DNA of 64,000 nucleotides from Minisyncoccota bacterium. Lineage in GTDB: Bacteria > Patescibacteriota > Minisyncoccia > Phycocordibacterales > UBA12079. Both the position numbers and the translations under genes were made by a program. The stretch's first letter is position 1, and each line of letters starts with the position of its first letter. The notes below the pieces were generated by a model. It ran no database searches. It was not told where the DNA came from and saw nothing but the letters and a program-made list of their open reading frames with translations. The stretch is taken from positions 19,774 to 83,773 of the forward strand of contig JAGLLX010000010.1 of assembly GCA_023140255.1 (NCBI GenBank), given 5' to 3'. This document shows positions 2,250 to 63,415 of the stretch, one piece after another.

Positions 2250-3118
2250 TGAATCAACTTTTTACTAAACGAAGAATTGGAGCAATTACTCTATTTACCT
2301 TATTTTGTATAGGCTTATTTACTTTTTATATTTTCTTGAAGACTAATGTAGAAGAAATTCCCTTAGATAATTCTCCAAAATATGAAATAGTTGGATCATC
2401 AGTAGAGGGACGAAAAATTGAAGCTTACACATTTGGAAATGGAGAAACTCAGCTTCTTTTTGTTGGAGGAATACATGGAGGCTATGAATGGAATTCTGTT
2501 TTACTTGCACACAAGGTTATAGATTATCTTAAAATCAATTCTGAAATAATTCCCGAAAATATAAATGTAACAATAATCCCCTCTGCTAACCCAGATGGAA
2601 TATTTAAAATAACCCAAAAAGAAGGATTATTTACAGCAATGGATATGCCTGAAAGTGAAGATACGGTTCAGGGTCGTTTTAATGCAAACGAAGTTGATTT
2701 GAATAGAAATTTTGATTGTAAATGGCAACCTGAAAGTACTTGGCGAAACAAAGTGGTTAGTGCCGGAACTTCCCCGTTCTCTGAACCGGAAGCTCAAGCT
2801 ATCCGAGATTTTGTTTTAGAAAATAATCCTCAAGCTGTTATCTTCTGGCACAGCCAAGCCAATACTGTTTATGCATCAGAATGTGAAAATGGAGTTCTCC
2901 CTGAAACTCTTGATATTATGAATGCTTATGCAAAAGCTTCTGGCTATAAGTCTGTGGATTCATTTGATGCTTACGAAGTAACTGGCGATGCAGAAGGTTG
3001 GCTAGCTTCAATTAATATTCCTGCTATTACAGTAGAACTTAAGACTCATGAATCAATTGATTGGACACAAAATTTAGCAGGTATCAATGCCCTTTTTGAA
3101 TATTATAACTCAAACTAA
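2249..3118 (+). CDS. membrane-anchored M14-like peptidase domain protein (paralog B)
   Basis: Tandem paralog of the previous gene with a TAATG stop/start overlap. Has IHGGYEW, DLNRNFD and FWHS, so the predicted zinc ligands are present. Confidence 0.6.
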   Translation: MNQLFTKRRIGAITLFTLFCIGLFTFYIFLKTNVEEIPLDNSPKYEIVGSSVEGRKIEAYTFGNGETQLLFVGGIHGGYEWNSVLLAHKVIDYLKINSEIIPENINVTIIPSANPDGIFKITQKEGLFTAMDMPESEDTVQGRFNANEVDLNRNFDCKWQPESTWRNKVVSAGTSPFSEPEAQAIRDFVLENNPQAVIFWHSQANTVYASECENGVLPETLDIMNAYAKASGYKSVDSFDAYEVTGDAEGWLASINIPAITVELKTHESIDWTQNLAGINALFEYYNSN

Positions 3119-3254
3119 AATTTTATTTAGCTAAAAACCGTCCACAGAAAACCGTTTCTGTTTGAACGGTTTTCTTATTCTTTTAAAAATATGTTATCAT
3201 AGAAATTCCTTATTTTTAAAAAATAAAATTACTATTAATTTAACTAATTAAATT

Positions 3255-4397
3255 ATGCAAAAAAAATTTACACCCTTATTATTCCTAATGTCTTTAGGCG
3301 CTGGAGGCTTGGCTATCTCAGGCTTTTCATTTTTAAACTATACAATAAACCATGGTGAGGGTCTTGTTTATATAACTCAAATGTTGAATTTAAATTCAAC
3401 ATTTTTAGAACTTTTATTTTATAGAATGGCTGAAATAATAATGGTAGTGTTTACTCTTATCCATTTTTACTTAACTATCTATTTATTAAGAATCTATATT
3501 CCGTGGCTGAAAAGTGAAGAACATAAAATTATTAAAAACAACCCTTTAGAAAACTCTTCATTAGTTACTCCTTTTATCTCATTAATAATGACTATGAATG
3601 TATTTTTAGCGGTTATAAGATACTTTATTCCTGCGGCTGCTGAAAATTTACAAGTATTTATGTTTTCAGGTTTTATTGTTTGGTTATTATTATGGCTAGC
3701 TCTTATGAAAATAGAAATTTCTCTTCTTAAAATTTCATTTTCAAAAAGTTTTGATATCAGTAAAATTAATTTTGGATGGCTCCTGCACCCTTTTGCTTTA
3801 AGCATGTTAACTGTTACGGGTATGGGAATAGCAGCTTTGGCACAAGATTATGTTCTTGCAAGTACAGCTATGTTCCTATCACTTATCTCTGGAACTATGG
3901 GATTATTTTTACTAACAGTAAAATTAATTACATTATTTAAAAGCCACATTACAGCTCCTGGTCTTCCTGAAAAGCAATTTTTACCTAGTTTTTTGATTAT
4001 TGTTCCTAATATTACCCTTTTTGCTATTAGTTTTTTTAGATTTGGTCATTATTTAGAAAATAAAATGCATTTTGAAATGGGTTCTTATTTTATAATAGTA
4101 ATACTTATAAGCTTTGCTTTTGAAATATGGTATATGGCATTTGGAATTACTTTACTTAAAGACTACTTTAAGAAAGAAATGAGAGAAGAATTCCATATTT
4201 CTCAATGGGGATTCATTTGTCCTTTTGTAGCTTTTTCTGTTCTAGCTACTTTTGTACATAATTTATTTATCCCTTCTATCTATTTTAGTATACTAATAAT
4301 ATTAGTAATGCTATTTACATCAATTTTATTTTTCTATCTTTTAAATCGTCATTTAAAATGTGTTAAAAATAAAAAAATTAAATTTGAATGTGTATAA
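3255..4397 (+). CDS. polytopic integral membrane protein (about 10 TM), function unknown
   Basis: Highly hydrophobic 380 aa protein. No motif recognised with confidence. Confidence 0.55.
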   Translation: MQKKFTPLLFLMSLGAGGLAISGFSFLNYTINHGEGLVYITQMLNLNSTFLELLFYRMAEIIMVVFTLIHFYLTIYLLRIYIPWLKSEEHKIIKNNPLENSSLVTPFISLIMTMNVFLAVIRYFIPAAAENLQVFMFSGFIVWLLLWLALMKIEISLLKISFSKSFDISKINFGWLLHPFALSMLTVTGMGIAALAQDYVLASTAMFLSLISGTMGLFLLTVKLITLFKSHITAPGLPEKQFLPSFLIIVPNITLFAISFFRFGHYLENKMHFEMGSYFIIVILISFAFEIWYMAFGITLLKDYFKKEMREEFHISQWGFICPFVAFSVLATFVHNLFIPSIYFSILIILVMLFTSILFFYLLNRHLKCVKNKKIKFECV

Positions 4398-4877: not shown

Positions 4878-5389
4878 TGAATAAATTACTCGCAAAAAAT
4901 AAACAAAAAGGTGTAACTAAATTTCTAATGGCTGTTTTTGTAATTTATTTAGGAGCTGCTTTATATGATTTCTCTATTGTGAAAGAAGCCTTTTTTGACT
5001 TTTTAGCAATGTTCATACAAATGATACCAATATTAGCTTTTGTTTTTGTACTAATGGCTATAGTCAATTTTTACTTTACTCCAGAAAGAATAAAAAAACA
5101 TTTAGGAGAAAGCTCGGGAATTAAAGGGTGGATTTATACAATGCTCTCAGGAATTATTATCTCTGGTCACGCCTACATCTTTTTCCCATTACTTAAAGAT
5201 TTAAAAGATCATGGAATGAAAGACTCTTTGTTAGCTGTATTTTTATATAGTAAAAATATAAAGATTCCATTTTTACCAGTAATGGTTTATTATTTTGGAC
5301 TAAGCTTTACTATCGTATTAACTATTTATACTGCTATATTCTCAATTTTAAACGGGTTTGTCGTAGAATGGTTAGTAAAACGAAAATAA
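4877..5389 (+). CDS. predicted permease, subunit 2
   Basis: Hydrophobic 170 aa protein translationally coupled to 4440-4877. Confidence 0.45.
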   Translation: MNKLLAKNKQKGVTKFLMAVFVIYLGAALYDFSIVKEAFFDFLAMFIQMIPILAFVFVLMAIVNFYFTPERIKKHLGESSGIKGWIYTMLSGIIISGHAYIFFPLLKDLKDHGMKDSLLAVFLYSKNIKIPFLPVMVYYFGLSFTIVLTIYTAIFSILNGFVVEWLVKRK

Positions 5390-5446
5390 GAATTCTCTTG
5401 CTTATCAACCTAAAATCATATATAATCTGCTCTATAAAAAAATATT

Positions 5447-5605
5447 ATGTCACAAGATAGATTAATTAAATTAGCTTGTCAGGATTGTAAAAGAATCAAT
5501 TATTGGTCAAGTAAAAATAAGAAGTTAGTTGTTGATAAAATTGAACTCAACAAATATTGTAAATGGTGTAGAAAACACACTGTTCATAAAGAAACTAAAA
5601 AGTAA
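5447..5605 (+). CDS. rpmG: 50S ribosomal protein L33
   Basis: 52 aa translation [52 protein letters not shown] with the Cys4 L33 signature. Not in the ORF track because it is shorter than 60 aa. Confidence 0.85.
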
Positions 5606-5697: not shown

Positions 5698-5771
5698 GGG
5701 TCCATAGTTTAGTTGGTAAAACAACGGTCTCCAAAACCGTCAACCGAGGTTCGAGTCCTCGTGGACCCGCA
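5698..5771 (+). tRNA. tRNA-Trp (anticodon CCA)
   Basis: Full cloverleaf: acceptor GGGTCCA/TGGACCC, D arm GTTT..AAAC, anticodon stem ACGGT/ACCGT with loop CTCCAAA, T arm CGAGG-TTCGAGT-CCTCG. No encoded CCA. Confidence 0.9.
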
Positions 5772-5940
5772 ATAATGAAAATCATCCAATTTCATATTGA
5801 GTGATTTTTATTATCTATGATTCTAATAGGACTCGAACGGTGATAGGAAAAGGACTAAATTCCTTTTCCGAGCCGCGACCAGCAGTACTTAGTAAAATTA
5901 GAGTGAACTTTGTGAACAAATAATTTTACTTAGTAACTGT

Positions 5941-5964
5941 GGGTCGAGTCCTCGTGGACCCGCA
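5941..5964 (+). repeat. direct copy of the tRNA-Trp 3' end (23/24 nt identical to 5748-5771)
   Basis: GGGTCGAGTCCTCGTGGACCCGCA versus GGTTCGAGTCCTCGTGGACCCGCA, 193 bp downstream. A hairpin terminator follows. Confidence 0.8.
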
Positions 5965-5977
5965 AAAAGACATTTAA

Positions 5978-6001
5978 CCCCAAATGATAATTTGGGGTTT
6001 T
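5978..6001 (+). terminator. rho-independent terminator
   Basis: ccccaaat-gata-atttgggg followed by TTT. Confidence 0.6.
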
Positions 6002-6037
6002 AGTATTTTATAATCTTTATTTAATCTTAAGTTTTAA

Positions 6038-6079
6038 ATATTATATGCTGGTATTCTGCAGAATACCAGCATATAATAT
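6038..6079. promoter_or_regulatory. perfect 42-bp palindrome overlapping a -10-like TATAAT, 15 bp upstream of the ArsR-family gene
   Basis: AATATTATATGCTGGTATTCTGCAGAATACCAGCATATAATATT. Verified base by base as its own reverse complement. Candidate operator. Confidence 0.6.
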
Positions 6080-6093
6080 GATATAATTTAAAC

Positions 6094-6381
6094 ATGTATA
6101 AATATAAAAATAAAAAAACATATAGACAATTAGAAAGATTAGTCAAAGGATTTGCTAATCATAGAAGAATACAAGTAATGGAATTATTAAAAAAGAAACC
6201 TGAATTATCAGTTATAGAAATAGCAGAAGAATTAAGTGTTAATGTTAAAACAATATCTGATCATATAAAAAAATTAGCCATGTCAGGGTTAATTTTAAAA
6301 AGGAATGAATTACAATCAGTCAGGCACAAACTAACAAAAAACGGGGAACAAATTCTTAAGTTCTTGAGAACTTTAACATAA
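6094..6381 (+). CDS. ArsR/SmtB-family winged-helix transcriptional regulator
   Basis: HRRIQVMELLKKKPELSVIEIAEELSVNVKTISDHIKKLAMSGLI matches the ArsR HTH region. Confidence 0.7.
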   Translation: MYKYKNKKTYRQLERLVKGFANHRRIQVMELLKKKPELSVIEIAEELSVNVKTISDHIKKLAMSGLILKRNELQSVRHKLTKNGEQILKFLRTLT

Positions 6382-6468
6382 ATATTTAAACCCTTTACTT
6401 TACATTAATATTATTATATGATATTTCTAGTTGTTATTTTTGATAAAAATATATAAAGGAGGTAGAAA

Positions 6469-6903
6469 ATGAAAAAAAGAAGGGAAATAGAAGTACTGCA
6501 AAAAGGACGTTCTTTCAAAGTGGAAGGGAGTTTTAAATTTGCTGTGCAAATTCCAGACAACGCTATTGGGTGTAGTGGCTCTCGTTGCTCAAATTGTGAC
6601 AATAAAGAAGTATATTGTCATCAAATATGTAAAGAATGTGGACTACCTTTTGTTGGTCCTTTTGGCCTTCCCCAACTACCTATTTGGGAAAGCATGAGCT
6701 TCAGCAAAAGGAAAGCTCTTGTACTAAAAATCTTTAAGCACAAGAAGAATAGAGGCCGAATGGAATATATAGGAATTAGATTTATTCCAATGACCCCTCG
6801 GGAACTACTACGAATAGAAACTCTGGACGAAAAAGGAGCCGAATCATTCCTTTGTGTCCATGGAGTATCTCCTGGGAACATGAAGAACATTCTTCATGCT
6901 TAA
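6469..6903 (+). CDS. hypothetical Cys-rich protein (144 aa)
   Basis: Strong SD (aaaggaggtagaaa then ATG). N-terminal cysteine cluster CSGSRCSNCDNKEVYCHQICKECG. Possibly co-transcribed with the ArsR-like gene. Confidence 0.55.
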   Translation: MKKRREIEVLQKGRSFKVEGSFKFAVQIPDNAIGCSGSRCSNCDNKEVYCHQICKECGLPFVGPFGLPQLPIWESMSFSKRKALVLKIFKHKKNRGRMEYIGIRFIPMTPRELLRIETLDEKGAESFLCVHGVSPGNMKNILHA

Positions 6904-8727: not shown

Positions 8728-9777
8728 ATGAAAGAAAAAATAGCAATTATTTCAGTACTAGTTAATTTATTTCTAGCAATTGGAAAAACAATAATAGGTC
8801 TTATCATTGGTTCAGCCTCAGTTCTTGCAGAAGGAATTCACTCAGGAATGGACGTTTTTTCATCAGCAATAAGTTACGTTGGAATTAAAACTGCAAAGAA
8901 ACCTGTTGATGAAAAACACCCCTATGGTTATTATAAATTTGAAGTTTTATCTGGTTTAGTTATAACAGGCTTTTTATTTATAGCAGGACTGTGGATGATT
9001 TATGAATCATACCAAAGCTTTATTGATCCAGAAATTTTATCAATGAGTTATATGGCAATAGCTATAATGCTTGCTTCAATAATATTGAATGAAATTATGG
9101 CTCGTCTTAAAATTCATTATGGTAAGAAAGAAAACTCATTAAGCCTTCTTTCTGACGGAGTACATGACAAAGTTGATGTTTATGCTTCAATTGCAGTTTT
9201 GATAGGAATTGTTTTAATGCCTTATTGGATTTATGTTGATTCAATATTAGCATTTTTAATAGGACTTTATATTATTAAAGAATCTTTTGAATTAGGAAAA
9301 GAAGCTGTTGATTCCCTCCTTGATGTTTCTGCTGGAAAAGAAATTGAAGACGAAATTAAAGCTATTGCTAAAAAATTAAATACAGAAATAAGTTCTCTGA
9401 AAACACAGCAACGAGGATCAGCAGTGACTGCTAATTTTGAAATAAACCTTCCTAATAATTTAAACTTAGAAGAAGCCACGAAAAAATCAAACGCTCTGAG
9501 AGAAAAACTTATAGAAAAGATAAGGAGTTTAGAATATGTAGTCATTCAAATTACTAGTCATGAAGTAGAAACTGGCTACTTCAAATCAGGTCTTATGGAA
9601 GATGTTAACTGGAAAAGAAAAAGTCGGTTTGAAGGAATAATCCCACAAGCCGAAGGGAAAGGTCCAGAGGGTTATTGTGCCTGCCCTAAATGTAGTTATA
9701 AAATAGCCCATGAAAAAGGAACTCCTTGTGCTGAATTAAAATGCCCAACTTGTGGAGTAACTTTAGAACGAGAATAG
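8728..9777 (+). CDS. cation diffusion facilitator (CDF) family divalent-metal efflux transporter with a C-terminal zinc-ribbon-like tail
   Basis: TM region with the HxxxD-type CDF signature (GIHSGMDVFSS ... DGVHDKVD). C-terminus CACPKCSYK...CPTCG. Confidence 0.75.
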   Translation: MKEKIAIISVLVNLFLAIGKTIIGLIIGSASVLAEGIHSGMDVFSSAISYVGIKTAKKPVDEKHPYGYYKFEVLSGLVITGFLFIAGLWMIYESYQSFIDPEILSMSYMAIAIMLASIILNEIMARLKIHYGKKENSLSLLSDGVHDKVDVYASIAVLIGIVLMPYWIYVDSILAFLIGLYIIKESFELGKEAVDSLLDVSAGKEIEDEIKAIAKKLNTEISSLKTQQRGSAVTANFEINLPNNLNLEEATKKSNALREKLIEKIRSLEYVVIQITSHEVETGYFKSGLMEDVNWKRKSRFEGIIPQAEGKGPEGYCACPKCSYKIAHEKGTPCAELKCPTCGVTLERE

Positions 9778-9854: not shown

Positions 9855-9874
9855 CCTGCCTGCCGGCAGGCAGG
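9855..9874. repeat. GC-rich palindromic repeat, copy A (CCTGCCTGCCGGCAGGCAGG)
   Basis: Perfect 20-bp GC palindrome in an AT-rich intergenic region between convergent genes. Related copies at 45871-45892 and 63458-63497. Confidence 0.6.
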
Positions 9875-34466: not shown

Positions 34467-34631
34467 ATTTAAAATGTCGGCTACCATATAGCCAGCATTC
34501 AATATTTTGGGGTTTTACTATTCCAGTTAACTGGAATAGTAAAGACCAAAATACTAAACTTCTCACAGAAATAAACAAAATTTAAATTTGTTCATACTAA
34601 AAACTAATTACTATAAACTAACTTACTGAAG

Positions 34632-47025: not shown

Positions 47026-48978
47026 TTACTCAGTTTTTGGAGCATCTCCATTTTCCTTATCTCCTTCAGAATTTTCATCTGTAGATTCATATTCAGCATC
47101 ACGAACATTTCCCTCTTTATTATCTTCGGAGGTGCTTTCTCCTTCAGCAGGAGCTTGTTTCGCTTGTTCTTCTTGCATTTTTTTCATCACCTCTTCTCCA
47201 ATTTTTTGCATTGAAGTTGAAAGTTCATCTGTTGCTTTTTTAATTGCATCAATATCAGAACCATCTTTTACTTTCTTTAATTCTTCCACCTTAACATTTA
47301 CATCATTTTTAATCTCTTCTGAAACTTTCTCTTCATTTTCTTTTATTGATTTTTCTGCTGTATGAATAAATTGTTCTGCTGTATTTTTTATTTCTATTTC
47401 TTCTTTTTTCTTTTTATCTTCATCAGCATGTAATTCAGCATCTTTTTTCATTTTTTCAACATCTTCATCTGTTAAACCAGAAGAAGCTTCAATTTTAACT
47501 GACTGTTCCTTTCCGCTAGCTTTATCAATAGCTTTTACATTTAAAATTCCATTAGCATCAATATCAAAAGAAACTTCTACTTGTGGGATACCTCTAGGAG
47601 CAGGAGTAATTCCTTCTAAAATAAATCTCCCCAAGCTTTTATTATCAATTGCTAAAGATCTTTCTCCTTGAGTAATATGAATTTCTACAGACGGTTGATT
47701 ATCTACTGCTGTAGAAAAAATTTGAGATTTTGAAGTTGGAATAGTTGTATTCTTTTCAATTAATTTTGTAGCCACTCCTCCCATTGTTTCTATTCCTAAA
47801 GACAAAGGAATAACATCTAACAAAAGAACATCCTTAACATCTCCTTGTAAAATACCTGCTTGGATAGCGGCTCCATCAGCTACAACCTCATCAGGGTTAA
47901 TAGACTGATTTGGTTCTTTATTAAATAATTTTTTTACAGCATCTTTAATTGCTGGCATTCTAGTTTGCCCTCCTACTAAGATAACTTCGTCTATATCAGA
48001 AATTTCAAAAGGTGAAGCTTCAACAGCTCGCTTTGTAATTTCAATTGATTTTTGAATATATTCATCGGCTAATTCCTCTAACTTAGCTCTAGTCATTTTT
48101 AAAAGAAGATGTTTCGGTCCGTCTTCTCCAGAAGTAATAAACGGAATATTGATTTCTGTATCTTGAGCAGTAGAAAGTTCTAATTTAGCTTTTTCAGCTG
48201 ATTCATCTAATCTTTGTAATGCTAAAGTATCTCCACTAATATCAATACCTGAGTCTTTCTTAAATTCAGCAATAATCCATTGAATAACTTTTTGATCAAT
48301 ATCCCTTCCTCCCATATGAGAATCTCCATCAGTTGATTTAACTTCAACAGTATCGTTAGATACCTCTAAAACAGAAACATCAAATGTTCCTCCGCCAAAA
48401 TCAAAAACTACAATTTGTTGATCATTATTTTTATTAAAACCATAAGATAAAGCTGCTGCTGTTGGTTCGTTTATAATTCTTTTTACCTCTAATCCAGCAA
48501 TTTTACCTGCATCTTTAGTAGCTTGCCTTTGTGAATCATTAAAATATGCAGGAACAGTAATAACTGCTTCTGTAATAGATTCCCCTATTTTAGCTTCTGC
48601 GTCAGCTTTTAATTTTGAGATAATCATAGCTGAAATTTCTTCAGGTCTATAATTTTTATCGCCCATTTTTATTTCAACCCCTCCTGTAGCAGATTTTGAA
48701 ATTTCAAAAGGAGCAGTCTCTTTATCTTTATCTAATTCTTTATCTTCAAATTTATGACCAACAAACCTTTTAATTCCAGAAACTGTATTTTGAGGATTTG
48801 TTACTGCTTGTCTTCTAGCTAATTGCCCTACCAACCTTTCTCCTGTTTTAGAGATAGCCACTACAGAAGGAGTCGTTCTTGACCCTTCAGCATTTTCTAA
48901 AATTTTTGCTTCTCCTCCTTCAATTATTGCCATTGCGGAGTTAGTTGTTCCTAAATCAATTCCTAAAATTTTTGACAT
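47026..48978 (-). CDS. dnaK: molecular chaperone DnaK (Hsp70)
   Basis: [15 protein letters not shown] and DLGGGTFD signatures. Confidence 0.95.
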
Positions 48979-57226: not shown

Positions 57227-57817
57227 TTACTTATTTTCTAAAATCTTAAAATCTTTTTTAAGATCATCACGACTAAATGAGTTATATAATGCCACGGCGG
57301 GATGAAGTAAAGGAACAATTTTTATTGCCCCATAAGAAGTTTTAACCTCAAAAGATTTTCCTCTCATTTTTCCAATAGTTTCAATTTCTAAATCTAAATT
57401 AAATTTTTTCATTATATATTCTGCAGAATACCTACCCAAAGTTGCAATAATTTTAGGTTGAATAATTTCTATTTGCCTATCTAAAAAAGGCCCATAAATT
57501 TCAATTTCTTCTTCAGACGGGTCTCGATTAGCAGTTGGTCTGTCTTTAACTATGTTTGTAATATAAATATCTTCCCTTTTTAAATTAATTGAACTTAAAA
57601 GTTCATCTAAAACCCTCCCTGAAGCTCCACAAAAAGGCTGTCCTGTTTGAGCTTCATTTTTTCCAGGAGCTTCTCCCACAAACATAATTTTTGCATTATG
57701 ATCCCCTGCTCCAATGACAGGAAAAACTTTGTTTTTAATTCTTTCTGTATACAAAGGAGATTTTTTAAGATTTAAAATTTCATCCTTTATTTGTTTCATT
57801 TGTTCTGTTTTATTCAT
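57227..57817 (-). CDS. uracil-DNA glycosylase, family 4
   Basis: GEAPGKNEAQTGQPFCGASGRVLDELL motif. Preceded by leader element copy 3. Confidence 0.8.
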   Translation of the reverse strand: MNKTEQMKQIKDEILNLKKSPLYTERIKNKVFPVIGAGDHNAKIMFVGEAPGKNEAQTGQPFCGASGRVLDELLSSINLKREDIYITNIVKDRPTANRDPSEEEIEIYGPFLDRQIEIIQPKIIATLGRYSAEYIMKKFNLDLEIETIGKMRGKSFEVKTSYGAIKIVPLLHPAVALYNSFSRDDLKKDFKILENK

Positions 57818-61866: not shown

Positions 61867-62625
61867 ATGAATATTCTGACAGCAATTCCTATTTATAGAA
61901 ACAAATTTCAAGAACCTGTTTTGTTCTTTACTCAAGAAAATTTTTCTGTAGGTTCTATTATTTTAGCTCCTTATCCACAAACAAAAGGTTCTAAAGAAAA
62001 ACCTGTTTTAATTATAGAAGTAAGTGATTCAAAAAATAAAAAACAGTTTTTAAGAAAAACCAGTATTCAAATAAACAAAAGTACTAATCCTTATGAATTA
62101 CCTTTTCTTTCTGACAAAATTATAAAAGATATAGAACTTAAAACATCTAAAATTAATAAAACTTTGAACTTTTCTTTAGACAAAATTTTTACAAAAGCTA
62201 TTAAAAAAGAGTTAAATAAGACTATAGAAAATTCAGATAAAAGCATCATTGAAAACTATGTTAATAAAATTACTCCTGATTTTATTAGCCAAAAATTAAA
62301 AACATTTCTTCCTAAGAAAAAAGAAACTAAAATCTATACTAGAGGAATCCAAAGTATTGAAAATCTTTTATCTTCCACAAGTACAACAAAGAAAAATTCA
62401 CTTCATTCAGAAAAACATTATTTAATTGCAGAAATACGAGAATATTTTGGAGAAACAAACAAAAAAGGAAAAGGTTCCTTTAGTTTCTATTTAGGATTTT
62501 TTAAAAGAATTCCTGAAAATATTATTTATCAATACTGGTCAGAAGTAAAAGAAAGTCGTAAATCAACCAAAGATCAACAAAAAATCTTTTGGTGGAAAAT
62601 CGGTCAATATTTAAAGAAAAAATAA
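61867..62625 (+). CDS. hypothetical Lys-rich protein
   Basis: ORF with a terminator (aaatggctcatc-taga-tgagccattt) at about 62625-62650. Confidence 0.5.
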   Translation: MNILTAIPIYRNKFQEPVLFFTQENFSVGSIILAPYPQTKGSKEKPVLIIEVSDSKNKKQFLRKTSIQINKSTNPYELPFLSDKIIKDIELKTSKINKTLNFSLDKIFTKAIKKELNKTIENSDKSIIENYVNKITPDFISQKLKTFLPKKKETKIYTRGIQSIENLLSSTSTTKKNSLHSEKHYLIAEIREYFGETNKKGKGSFSFYLGFFKRIPENIIYQYWSEVKESRKSTKDQQKIFWWKIGQYLKKK

Positions 62626-62859
62626 ATGGCTCATCTAGATGAGCCATTTAGTATGGTTTGAAATATAGCTAAATATTGAGCCTACCAATACCAACAAACA
62701 AGTAGCAGAAATATTGTTTAATATCCTTTCTTCTTAATTTTACCTAAAACTTTCTTTATTACTGCAGTTAACTACGATAATTCAAGTTAACTTATACCTA
62801 AATTTCTTATTTCATTATTTTTAGCACTCTCTCTTGAAACACAAACAATATCTTGTTTT

Positions 62860-62879
62860 TAGTTCAATCGATTGAACTA
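62860..62879. promoter_or_regulatory. 20-bp perfect palindrome TAGTTCAATCGATTGAACTA, copy 1 (within the 29-bp direct repeat 62851-62879)
   Basis: Verified as self-reverse-complementary. Located just past the 3' end of the YerC/TrpR-like gene. Confidence 0.6.
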
Positions 62880-62891
62880 ATTTAAGTTTAT

Positions 62892-63299
62892 TTAGTATTT
62901 GTTTAAAAAGTTCCATCTTCCTTTTCCCACAATAGGAGGCATCCCACATTTTAAAACTTTATCTAATCCTTCCCAAAAAGTAACTCTGTTCTTTTTTTGC
63001 TTTATTATTTCTATAATATCTTTATATTTTTCTAAATCAATATCTATAGCAATTCTTTTCACGGTGGCAGGACTTACCTTTAATGCTTTAGAAATTTTAT
63101 ACCAACTTATATTCTCTTGAAGCATAAAAATAATAGCTAATCTTTTTGCTAAAACTATTTTTTCAGAATCCCCTAATAAATCATTTACAAAATTTTTAGT
63201 AGAATTATTTGATTCTAATCTAGTAATAGTATCAATTAATCCAAAATTAATTTGATCAAGAACATTCTTTTTTAATTTTTCTTTTGAAACACGAGCCAT
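62892..63299 (-). CDS. YerC/YecD (Trp-repressor-like) family DNA-binding protein
   Basis: KISKALKVSPATVKRIAID helix-turn-helix and the overall YerC-like length and pattern. Confidence 0.5.
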   Translation of the reverse strand: MARVSKEKLKKNVLDQINFGLIDTITRLESNNSTKNFVNDLLGDSEKIVLAKRLAIIFMLQENISWYKISKALKVSPATVKRIAIDIDLEKYKDIIEIIKQKKNRVTFWEGLDKVLKCGMPPIVGKGRWNFLNKY

Positions 63300-63331: not shown

Positions 63332-63351
63332 TAGTTCAATCGATTGAACTA
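63332..63351. promoter_or_regulatory. 20-bp palindrome TAGTTCAATCGATTGAACTA, copy 2 (about 35 bp upstream of the gene start)
   Basis: Identical to copy 1. Confidence 0.6.
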
Positions 63352-63395: not shown

Positions 63396-63415
63396 TAGTT
63401 CAATCGATTGAACTA
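63396..63415. promoter_or_regulatory. 20-bp palindrome TAGTTCAATCGATTGAACTA, copy 3 (within the 29-bp direct repeat 63387-63415)
   Basis: TCTTGTTTTTAGTTCAATCGATTGAACTA shared with copy 1. Confidence 0.6.

Follow-up and report, generated by a model that had tools for sequence, protein, structure and literature searches.

Most members of the ArsR/SmtB family of winged-helix regulators act as repressors. Their operators are inverted repeats situated at or near the promoter, with a consensus of 12-2-12 architecture (PMC8790569). For the related protein Rv2034, auto-repression via a palindromic site has been described (PMC3338718). Control of a regulator gene through its own 3′ end is described for lacI of E. 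coli (PMC3711431, citing Abo et al. 2000): repressor bound to operator O3 at the 3′ end of lacI blocks RNA polymerase, the product of the truncated transcript is SsrA-tagged and degraded, and autoregulation by this roadblock is helped by looping to the promoter-proximal operator. Here we analysed a perfect palindrome of 42 base pairs (bp) at positions 6038-6079, upstream of a gene for a regulator of the ArsR/SmtB fold, in a stretch of 64,000 nucleotides from a Minisyncoccota bacterium (assembly GCA_023140255.1, contig JAGLLX010000010.1), which is called the window below. In our reading, to which we give a probability of roughly 0.7, the palindrome is an operator (O1) of the downstream regulator and serves its negative autoregulation. 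As for the two parts of this reading, we regard an operator of this very regulator as highly probable on comparative grounds, and a negative sign of the regulation as probable.

The palindrome, which has no strand of its own, was delimited by a repeat search and consists of two arms of 21 nucleotides (nt), ATATTATATGCTGGTATTCTG at 6038-6058 and CAGAATACCAGCATATAATAT at 6059-6079, which are 100% complementary and meet with no spacer between them. It comprises the 30-bp core of O1 and a symmetric extension of 6 bp on each side. An earlier note on this DNA, made from its letters alone, had given the coordinates and the length of 42 bp correctly; the string quoted there was 44 nt long, since A6037 and a final T had been added. 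Position 6080 is G, so that the symmetry ends at 42 bp. With the base composition of the window (about 30% G+C), 3.2e-7 perfect palindromes with 21-nt arms are expected per 64 kilobases (kb), and the longest arm in 200 first-order Markov simulations of the window was 14 nt, in agreement with the view that a chance origin is very unlikely. Among the other perfect palindromes of the window, the longest arms measure 15 nt.

For comparison, we used 80 orthologous loci from species-representative genomes, which make 81 together with the window. The best inverted repeat was sought in the 200 bp upstream of each orthologous gene, and the regions were then aligned on the repeat centre. Nearly all of these regions hold an inverted repeat and every one is a version of the same motif, which was found upstream of 77 of the 81 orthologues, in many lineages of Patescibacteria; the earlier note had named absence of the palindrome from orthologous promoters as the outcome that would speak against an operator. 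The 77 sites have the consensus T-A-T-T-C-T-n-A-W-R-T-T-C-T-y in the left half and r-A-G-A-A-Y-W-T-n-A-G-A-A-T-A in the right half, which can be written as TATTCT-N4-TTCT-N2-AGAA-N4-AGAATA, a 30-bp inverted repeat of 14-2-14 architecture with four blocks containing TTC or GAA. Counted from the centre, these sites show little or no variation at positions -5 to -2 and +2 to +5, at -11 (C) and at +11 (G). The O1 core of the window, TATGCT-GGTA-TTCT-GC-AGAA-TACC-AGCATA at 6044-6073 (likewise unstranded), carries minority variants, namely G at -12 in the outer block (9 of 77 loci) and a GC centre (5 of 77). At the centre, 32 loci have TG, 22 have CA and 15 have TA, all of them flexible pyrimidine-purine steps. 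Because TG and CA centres are both common, the motif shows no polarity with respect to the gene, which is how a site for a two-fold symmetric dimer on double-stranded DNA should behave. A -35 hexamer read from the centre as TTGAGA was rejected on the same counts (32 vs 22).

A position weight matrix was built from the orthologous sites and scanned over the whole loci and the window. Real sites score 23-43 bits, with 30.0 bits for O1 of the window, and simulated 64-kb windows never gave more than 10.8 bits. Across 514 kb, 193 sites score at least 20 bits, and nearly all of them are O1, a second copy at the end of the gene (O2), or sites located 20-60 bp upstream of gene starts. No site in the window other than O1 and O2 reaches 5 bits. 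The earlier note had proposed a search for half-sites upstream of other genes, and this search, with the half-site TGCTGGTATTCTG and up to 2 mismatches, returned the two arms and a chance-level match at 47950; besides the copy inside the regulator gene, the window thus holds no further target. Four loci have no O1 (L020, L025, L062 and L070), and in these O2 is weak or absent as well (13.0, 19.7 and 24.2 bits, and none), from which motif and gene appear to degrade together.

O1 abuts a putative promoter. The last base of the palindrome (6079) is the first T of an extended -10 element, TGaTATAAT (6079-6087, plus strand), recognized by reading the sequence, and the ATG follows after a gap of 6 nt; between the palindrome end and the ATG at 6094 there are 14 nt in all. 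The TATAAT that the earlier note had seen overlapping the right arm is present at 6072-6077, and TGaTATAAT appears to be the better candidate promoter element. The 6-nt gap places the predicted transcription start at about A6094 and thus implies a leaderless transcript, and no Shine-Dalgarno sequence is seen before the ATG. Relative to this predicted start, the palindrome would extend from about -56 to -15 and its 30-bp core from about -50 to -21. A convincing -35 hexamer is lacking at this promoter. The same layout, consisting of the operator, a few nt, [TG]nTATAAT, 5-6 nt and the ATG, was found in the closest relatives (L081, L083 and L085, with 77-86% protein identity). When the loci are taken together, hexamers resembling a -10 element show an excess +18 to +31 from the motif centre (38 at offsets 16-33 vs 7 at offsets 52-69); they stand most often 6-8 nt before the ATG, and a TG frequently precedes them. 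The motif is therefore both conserved upstream of the orthologues (77/81) and placed over or against promoter elements, which is what an autoregulatory operator would look like. Upstream, an intrinsic terminator with the stem AACCCCAAATGATAATTTGGGGTT and a T-rich tail (5976-6009, plus strand; terminator scan and sequence) ends the preceding tRNA region and would insulate O1 from read-through transcription.

The gene at 6094-6381 (plus strand) encodes 95 amino acids, and Pfam, a profile search of PDB sequences, AlphaFold and Foldseek all assign its product to the ArsR/SmtB winged-helix fold. HTH_5 of Pfam (PF01022, ArsR family) matches with 35.4 bits against a cut-off of 22 (E = 1e-8), which agrees with the family named in the earlier note. 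The PDB profile search matched HlyU (E = 1.5e-9), CadC (6e-6) and CzrA (1.6e-4), and also an Rv2034-like protein, AspA, PagR, NolR and SmtB. The AlphaFold monomer model (81.4 in the predicted local distance difference test) has helices at residues 10-20, 23-34, 40-47, 51-63 and 82-94 and strands at 67-72 and 75-80, giving the topology α1-α2-α3-αR-β1-β2-α5 of the ArsR/SmtB fold. Its best Foldseek matches are CadC, HlyU, ArsR, CzrA, SqrR and SmtB, with template modelling (TM) scores of 0.66-0.74. Homodimers of the ArsR/SmtB family form through α1 and α5, and the palindromic form of the site suggests a symmetric oligomer of the regulator. The family of the regulator is large and highly conserved, with 1215 homologues and identities of 60-86% across Patescibacteria; the best 120 of the 1215 are 61-100% identical to the window protein and are labelled as Pacebacteria, Parcubacteria, Microgenomates, Berkelbacteria, Kaiser-, Nomura-, Uhr-, Giovannoni- and Roizmanbacteria and others. 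The same protein without any difference is on record for a Candidatus Pacebacteria assembly.

In fold and size, with the order α1-α2-α3-αR-wing-α5, the regulator resembles SmtB, CzrA, CadC, AzuR and AztR. Its operator shares with those of the ArsR/SmtB family an AT-rich inverted repeat with a 2-bp centre located at or over the promoter, and also the words GAAC and GTTC about 8 bp apart with AATA and TATT outside them (PMC8790569). The order of these words is reversed, however, being TATT..GTTC-NN-GAAC..AATA here and AATA..GAAC-NN-GTTC..TATT in the known operators, for example AATACCTGAACA-GA-TGTTCAAGTATT, and the repeat is 14-2-14 instead of 12-2-12 (PMC8790569). In contrast to the metal-sensing members, the regulator has no partner gene for a metal transporter, and an alignment of 27 family members, which also gave the profile for the protein analysis, contains no conserved Cys and no α3N or α5 ligand pattern. 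Where CadC and ArsR have CxC, its α3 helix reads ELSVxEI; the α5 helix, ILKFLRTLE, has no His or Asp ligands, and the invariant His residues H23, H57 and H78 sit in α2, the recognition helix and the wing, as judged from the 27 sequences and their alignment with HlyU. HlyU, PagR, NolR and Rv2034 are alike in being small and without metal sites, and they are the best sequence matches among solved structures, HlyU over the whole domain, but identity is only about 30%. HlyU and some other non-metal members of the family use cysteine redox switches, for which the family described here has no conserved Cys. The motif is not reported for HlyU, PagR, NolR or Rv2034 in the literature that we searched; searches with the motif words and for regulators or motifs of Patescibacteria found nothing relevant, with incomplete coverage, so that an earlier description is possible. 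Another small protein of ArsR fold, AspA, is a centromere-binding protein of the Sulfolobus plasmid pNOB8 (PDB 4rs8 and 5k1y, E about 5e-5, TM 0.67-0.77). AspA binds a palindrome upstream of its own operon. It functions in plasmid partition together with ParA and ParB, whereas the present gene is chromosomal and lies among housekeeping genes, with no partition genes nearby.

Metal sensing by the regulator is not supported. Besides the missing ligands, the recurrent neighbours of the gene in other genomes are housekeeping genes (rsmI, murC, dnaX, fmt, pcm, nudix) with no metal transporter among them, and in the matrix scan of the window no site around the cation-efflux gene (8728-9777, 2.3 kb from the regulator) reaches 5 bits. 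With the operator motif absent upstream of that gene, there is no evidence for a regulator-transporter pairing of the CzrA/CzrB type. Thus, of the earlier interpretation, the operator of the adjacent ArsR-type gene is supported by comparative evidence (77 of 81 promoters, and overlap with the promoter), and the parts on metal sensing and on an insertion boundary are not. The annotation "ArsR family" should not be taken as metal sensing for this regulator. The product of 8728-9777, a cation-diffusion-facilitator transporter, has an extra C-terminal tail of about 70 residues with Cys pairs (CACPKCS...CPTCG) that resemble a zinc ribbon.

The second copy of the operator, O2, lies over the stop codon of the same gene. 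In the window it is AATTCTTAAGTTCTTGAGAACTTTAACATA at 6351-6380 (no strand assigned, 25.5 bits), which encodes ILKFLRTLT and the first two bases of the stop codon. The scan of whole loci found O2 in 77 of 81 genes, always in the last 30 bp of the coding sequence, with the consensus n-ATT-CTn-AAG-TTC-TTG-AGA-ACA-TTA-GAA-TAA/G, or I-L-K-F-L-R-T-L-E-stop in translation. The conserved C-terminal helix and the stop codon thus appear to be written in operator sequence, with nine codons and the stop serving two purposes. In the window, the right outer block of O2 is degenerate (AACATA), because the protein ends in Thr instead of Glu; the outer block of O1 is likewise of the CATA type.

Codon usage in this tail differs from that in the rest of the same genes. 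At O2, Phe (-6) is TTC in 78 of 81 genes, compared with 36% TTC elsewhere, and Arg (-4) is AGA in 78 of 78 (25% elsewhere). Glu (-1) is encoded by GAA in 77 of 77 (59%), Leu (-8) by CTN in 81 of 81 (60%), Leu (-5) by TTR in 72 of 73 (40%) and Thr (-3) by ACA in 56 of 62 (28%). The stop codon is TAA or TAG in 77 of 81 genes, and TGA makes up 31% of stops in neighbouring long open reading frames (ORFs). As a control, strictly invariant residues elsewhere in the protein vary at synonymous sites, with AGA for R15 in 28 of 73 and GAA for E14 in 41 of 73. Since the tail codons are fixed while invariant residues elsewhere vary synonymously, O2 appears to be under selection as DNA, beyond the conservation of the protein. 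Moreover, O2 retains all of the conserved blocks yet is an imperfect palindrome, with mismatches such as A/A at +/-7, and it is therefore the block sequence that would be selected at O2, not the potential to form a hairpin. A divergent subgroup (L025, L062 and L065) has the centre of O2 (at about 3246-3287) changed to TTCGTTAGAAT, encoding Phe-Val-Arg, with O1 weak or missing, which hints at a shifted DNA specificity of these paralogues.

A primary function of O2 as promoter or operator for the downstream gene was rejected, because -10-like hexamers are not enriched after O2 (15, compared with 38 for O1) and because O2 is retained whatever the orientation of that gene (12 of 12 loci with a convergent gene and 62 of 66 with a co-directional one). 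By analogy, O2 most likely acts on transcription of its own gene, by a roadblock or by looping. The spacing between O1 and O2 is 266-417 bp and shows no helical phasing (Rayleigh p at least 0.3), which leaves looping neither supported nor excluded. O2 is followed in several lineages by a tRNA-Gln gene that begins 50-70 bp further on (L049, L057 and L059, at about 3305-3407).

To our knowledge, lacI O3 is the sole analogy for a conserved intragenic operator over a stop codon. Among known systems, it offers the best precedent for O2 (PMC3711431). There are differences, however: in the lac system, the main operator controls a different operon and the lacI promoter has no operator, whereas O1 lies on the promoter of the regulator itself; and, unlike lacI O3, O2 overlaps the stop codon, has its synonymous sites frozen, and has been kept throughout a large group of phyla.

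Autoregulation accounts for these data most simply, because the motif flanks the gene on both sides in about 95% of the 81 loci. The palindrome, the conservation of the motif, the layout of the promoter, the constraint on the codons of O2 and the fold come directly out of the sequence analysis; that the protein binds the motif, whether it represses, how many dimers take part, where transcription starts and what O2 does are inferred, and on this basis the following mechanism can be proposed. Dimers of the regulator would recognize the four TTC/GAA blocks of the 14-2-14 repeat, probably with two dimers per site. Since O1 abuts the extended -10 element, protein bound there would keep RNA polymerase off the promoter, and the outcome of O1 occupancy would be homeostatic negative autoregulation. 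O2, bound by the same protein, would serve either as a roadblock to elongation that gives transcripts without a stop codon, or as the distal partner of a repression loop of about 300 bp. A roadblock would end transcripts about 15 codons before the stop and so remove the dimerization helix.

More tentatively, the whole arrangement can be read as two-layer self-limitation, in which the gene has a self-operator at either end, one (O1) at a leaderless promoter and the other (O2) across the stop codon, and occupancy of O2 would lead either to a non-stop mRNA that is then cleared by transfer-messenger RNA, or to the loop. This extended version, which we think possible but rather doubtful as a whole, would also have the regulator control rsmI, pcm, def and sua5 in many lineages, and would derive the symmetry of the arms from hairpin-templated homogenization. 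The 80 loci hold 39 further sites, mostly 20-60 bp upstream of co-directional gene starts; among the genes behind them are rsmI, which recurs, as well as pcm, def, nudix, sua5-like and nagZ-like genes and a second paralogue that has an O1 and an O2. In L007, the regulator gene is surrounded by six operator copies in tandem (2780-3397); in L063, at 5115-5441 and about 2 kb away, a second paralogue of 89 residues has a pair of O1 and O2 to itself.

Several observations weigh against an operator for simple autorepression. The best NCBIfam match of the protein, NF033788 (metalloregulator ArsR/SmtB), scores 46.7 bits, below its cut-off of 55; because the matches to Pfam and to structures are positive while this score is below cut-off, the regulator appears to be a divergent member of the fold, and effector-binding residues are not evident in its alignment. 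The geometry is not uniform either, as the motif centre lies anywhere from 5 to 139 bp from the start codon, and in some loci the motif would fall over or past the start site. In addition, the arms are complementary at non-conserved positions beyond what base frequencies predict, for example at +/-9 in 51 of 77 loci (22.6 expected), and 22 of 77 loci have at least 5 extra symmetric bp outside the core (0.13 expected). Perfect palindromes in the orthologous loci reach up to 48 bp, and the 6-bp extensions in the window are one instance of this common symmetry beyond the core. Simple base recognition does not account for the excess symmetry. In close relatives, the spacer tetranucleotides differ and the arms are still complementary in 3 of 4. 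Correction of quasi-palindromes templated by a hairpin during replication is a known mutational process, and we suspect it as the source of the arm symmetry; selection for cruciform formation or for a symmetric shape readout may be another. Finally, two points bear on the sign of regulation. Class II activators also bind to sites centred at -35 to -42 on promoters with an extended -10 element, and HlyU, by sequence the closest relative with a solved structure, was deposited under the name of a transcriptional activator.

The same protein could accordingly use the same site for activation, through class II recruitment of RNA polymerase at about -35 or through displacement of a silencer as in HlyU. 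The missing -35 hexamer of the window fits this possibility, as does the distance from motif centre to start codon, which clusters at 30-47 bp with a mode of 41. In many loci, however, the distance is only 17-27 bp, which puts the site over the -10 and start region and fits repression only; the site at the 3′ end of the gene has no obvious role in activation, and AzuR and SmtB are characterized repressors of the ArsR/SmtB family (PMC8790569). We therefore regard activation as unlikely, though the most serious of the alternatives.

Considerably less probable is that the palindrome works as a nucleic acid structure, either an RNA hairpin that terminates or stabilizes read-through transcripts, or a DNA cruciform. 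Such a structure would agree with the covariation of the arms at variable positions and with symmetry far above chance past the core; the terminator scan marks a 19-pair stem, and the palindrome folds as single-stranded DNA with -17.1 kcal/mol (z = -8.5). On the other hand, a pure structure would not need the sequence conservation of the four blocks over large evolutionary distances, and O2 is conserved block by block with mismatches, so that pairing is not kept there. Mismatches between the arms show no G-U bias toward the coding or transcribed strand (about 24 of G-T type vs 33 of A-C type), no T-run follows the stem, a canonical terminator is already present at 5976-6009, and the predicted transcription start lies downstream of the palindrome. 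A known RNA family was also ruled out, as an Rfam search with the palindrome returned only sub-threshold microRNA look-alikes of the sort that any long hairpin attracts.

About as improbable, or slightly more so, is that the motif is bound by some other factor that co-occurs with the gene, for example a different regulator, a nucleoid protein or a partition protein. The link between protein and motif is a comparative one, and extra copies are found upstream of the unrelated genes rsmI, pcm, def and nudix, which would suit a factor of this kind. Opposed to this, the motif lies on both sides of the gene in nearly all loci whatever the neighbours, is embedded in its coding sequence, and is lost or altered at both sites together in the loci of divergent paralogues. 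Autoregulation by the encoded protein is thus the reading that we retain.

Upstream of the palindrome, the window contains rpmG (5447-5605) and tRNA-Trp (5698-5770). The last 20 nt of tRNA-Trp (CGAGTCCTCGTGGACCCGCA, 5752-5771) recur exactly 193 bp downstream, at 5945-5964, and enclose a non-coding segment of 173 bp (5772-5944) that holds an inverted copy of the T-arm (AGGACTCGAAC, 5820-5831); the remnant ends 93 bp before the palindrome, and no third copy of the tRNA-Trp 3′ end exists in the window. This duplication resembles a scar left at the tRNA by integration or excision, or the decayed remains of a second tRNA copy. The closest relatives have the order rpoD-DUF2779-regulator-fmt, with the same gene and operator, and homologues of the flanking DUF2779, fmt and rpoD genes were not found in the window. 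The recurring tRNA 3′ end and the different neighbourhood in relatives would suit a boundary or recombination site of a mobile insertion at tRNA-Trp, which the earlier note had raised as a cruciform-forming boundary, but this is very improbable, because the repeat brackets only 5772-5944 with the palindrome outside it, tRNA-Trp precedes the regulator in 0 of 60 orthologous loci (an arrangement peculiar to the window genome) while nearly all have the palindrome, the relatives keep gene and operator, and no recombinase is adjacent. Directly downstream of the regulator, a Cys-rich ORF of 144 amino acids (6469-6903, CSGSRCSNCDNKEVYCHQICKECG...) has a strong AAGGAGG ribosome-binding site and a promoter-like site of its own (6394-6422), with no match in Pfam or NCBIfam.

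Transcriptional control in Patescibacteria (Candidate Phyla Radiation) is almost uncharted, as these organisms have tiny genomes with few regulators and are mostly uncultured. The pairing of regulator and operator described here is conserved across the group, concrete and testable, and the 30-bp motif can be used to predict target genes. The window and its relatives also give evidence for leaderless expression from extended -10 promoters. If the roadblock at O2 is true, the mechanism of lacI O3 would be an ancient and widespread design and no peculiarity of E. coli, and if the two-layer arrangement is true, it would provide self-limitation in organisms with very few regulators.

Other palindromes and one sequence close to the O1 centre were noted in the window. 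The latter, TATATTCTGCAGAATACC at 57415-57432, nearly repeats that centre and falls within a uracil-DNA-glycosylase-like gene (57227-57817, minus strand); it was rejected as an operator, as the outer blocks are missing and its score for the full motif stays below 5 bits, and it is probably due to chance, though the expectation for such an 18-mer is 0.02. A TrpR/YerC-like gene (62892-63299, minus strand; Pfam Trp_repressor, E = 2e-9) is bracketed by copies of the palindrome TAGTTCAATCGATTGAACTA at 62859-62880, 63332-63351 and 63396-63415, two of them upstream of the start and one 12 bp past the stop, and this genome may repeatedly place operators at both ends of a regulator gene. A perfect 30-bp palindrome, TTTACTATTCCAGTTAACTGGAATAGTAAA (34514-34543), lies about 90 bp from tRNA-Thr; it has the outer words TATTCC/GGAATA without the inner TTCT..AGAA blocks and scores below 5 bits. 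Two further perfect palindromes are probably both terminators, namely TAAATGGCTCATCTAGATGAGCCATTTA (62623-62650), which starts at the stop codon of the ORF at 61867-62625, and the G+C-rich CCTGCCTGCCGGCAGGCAGG (9855-9874), located between the convergent genes for a transporter and arginyl-tRNA synthetase.

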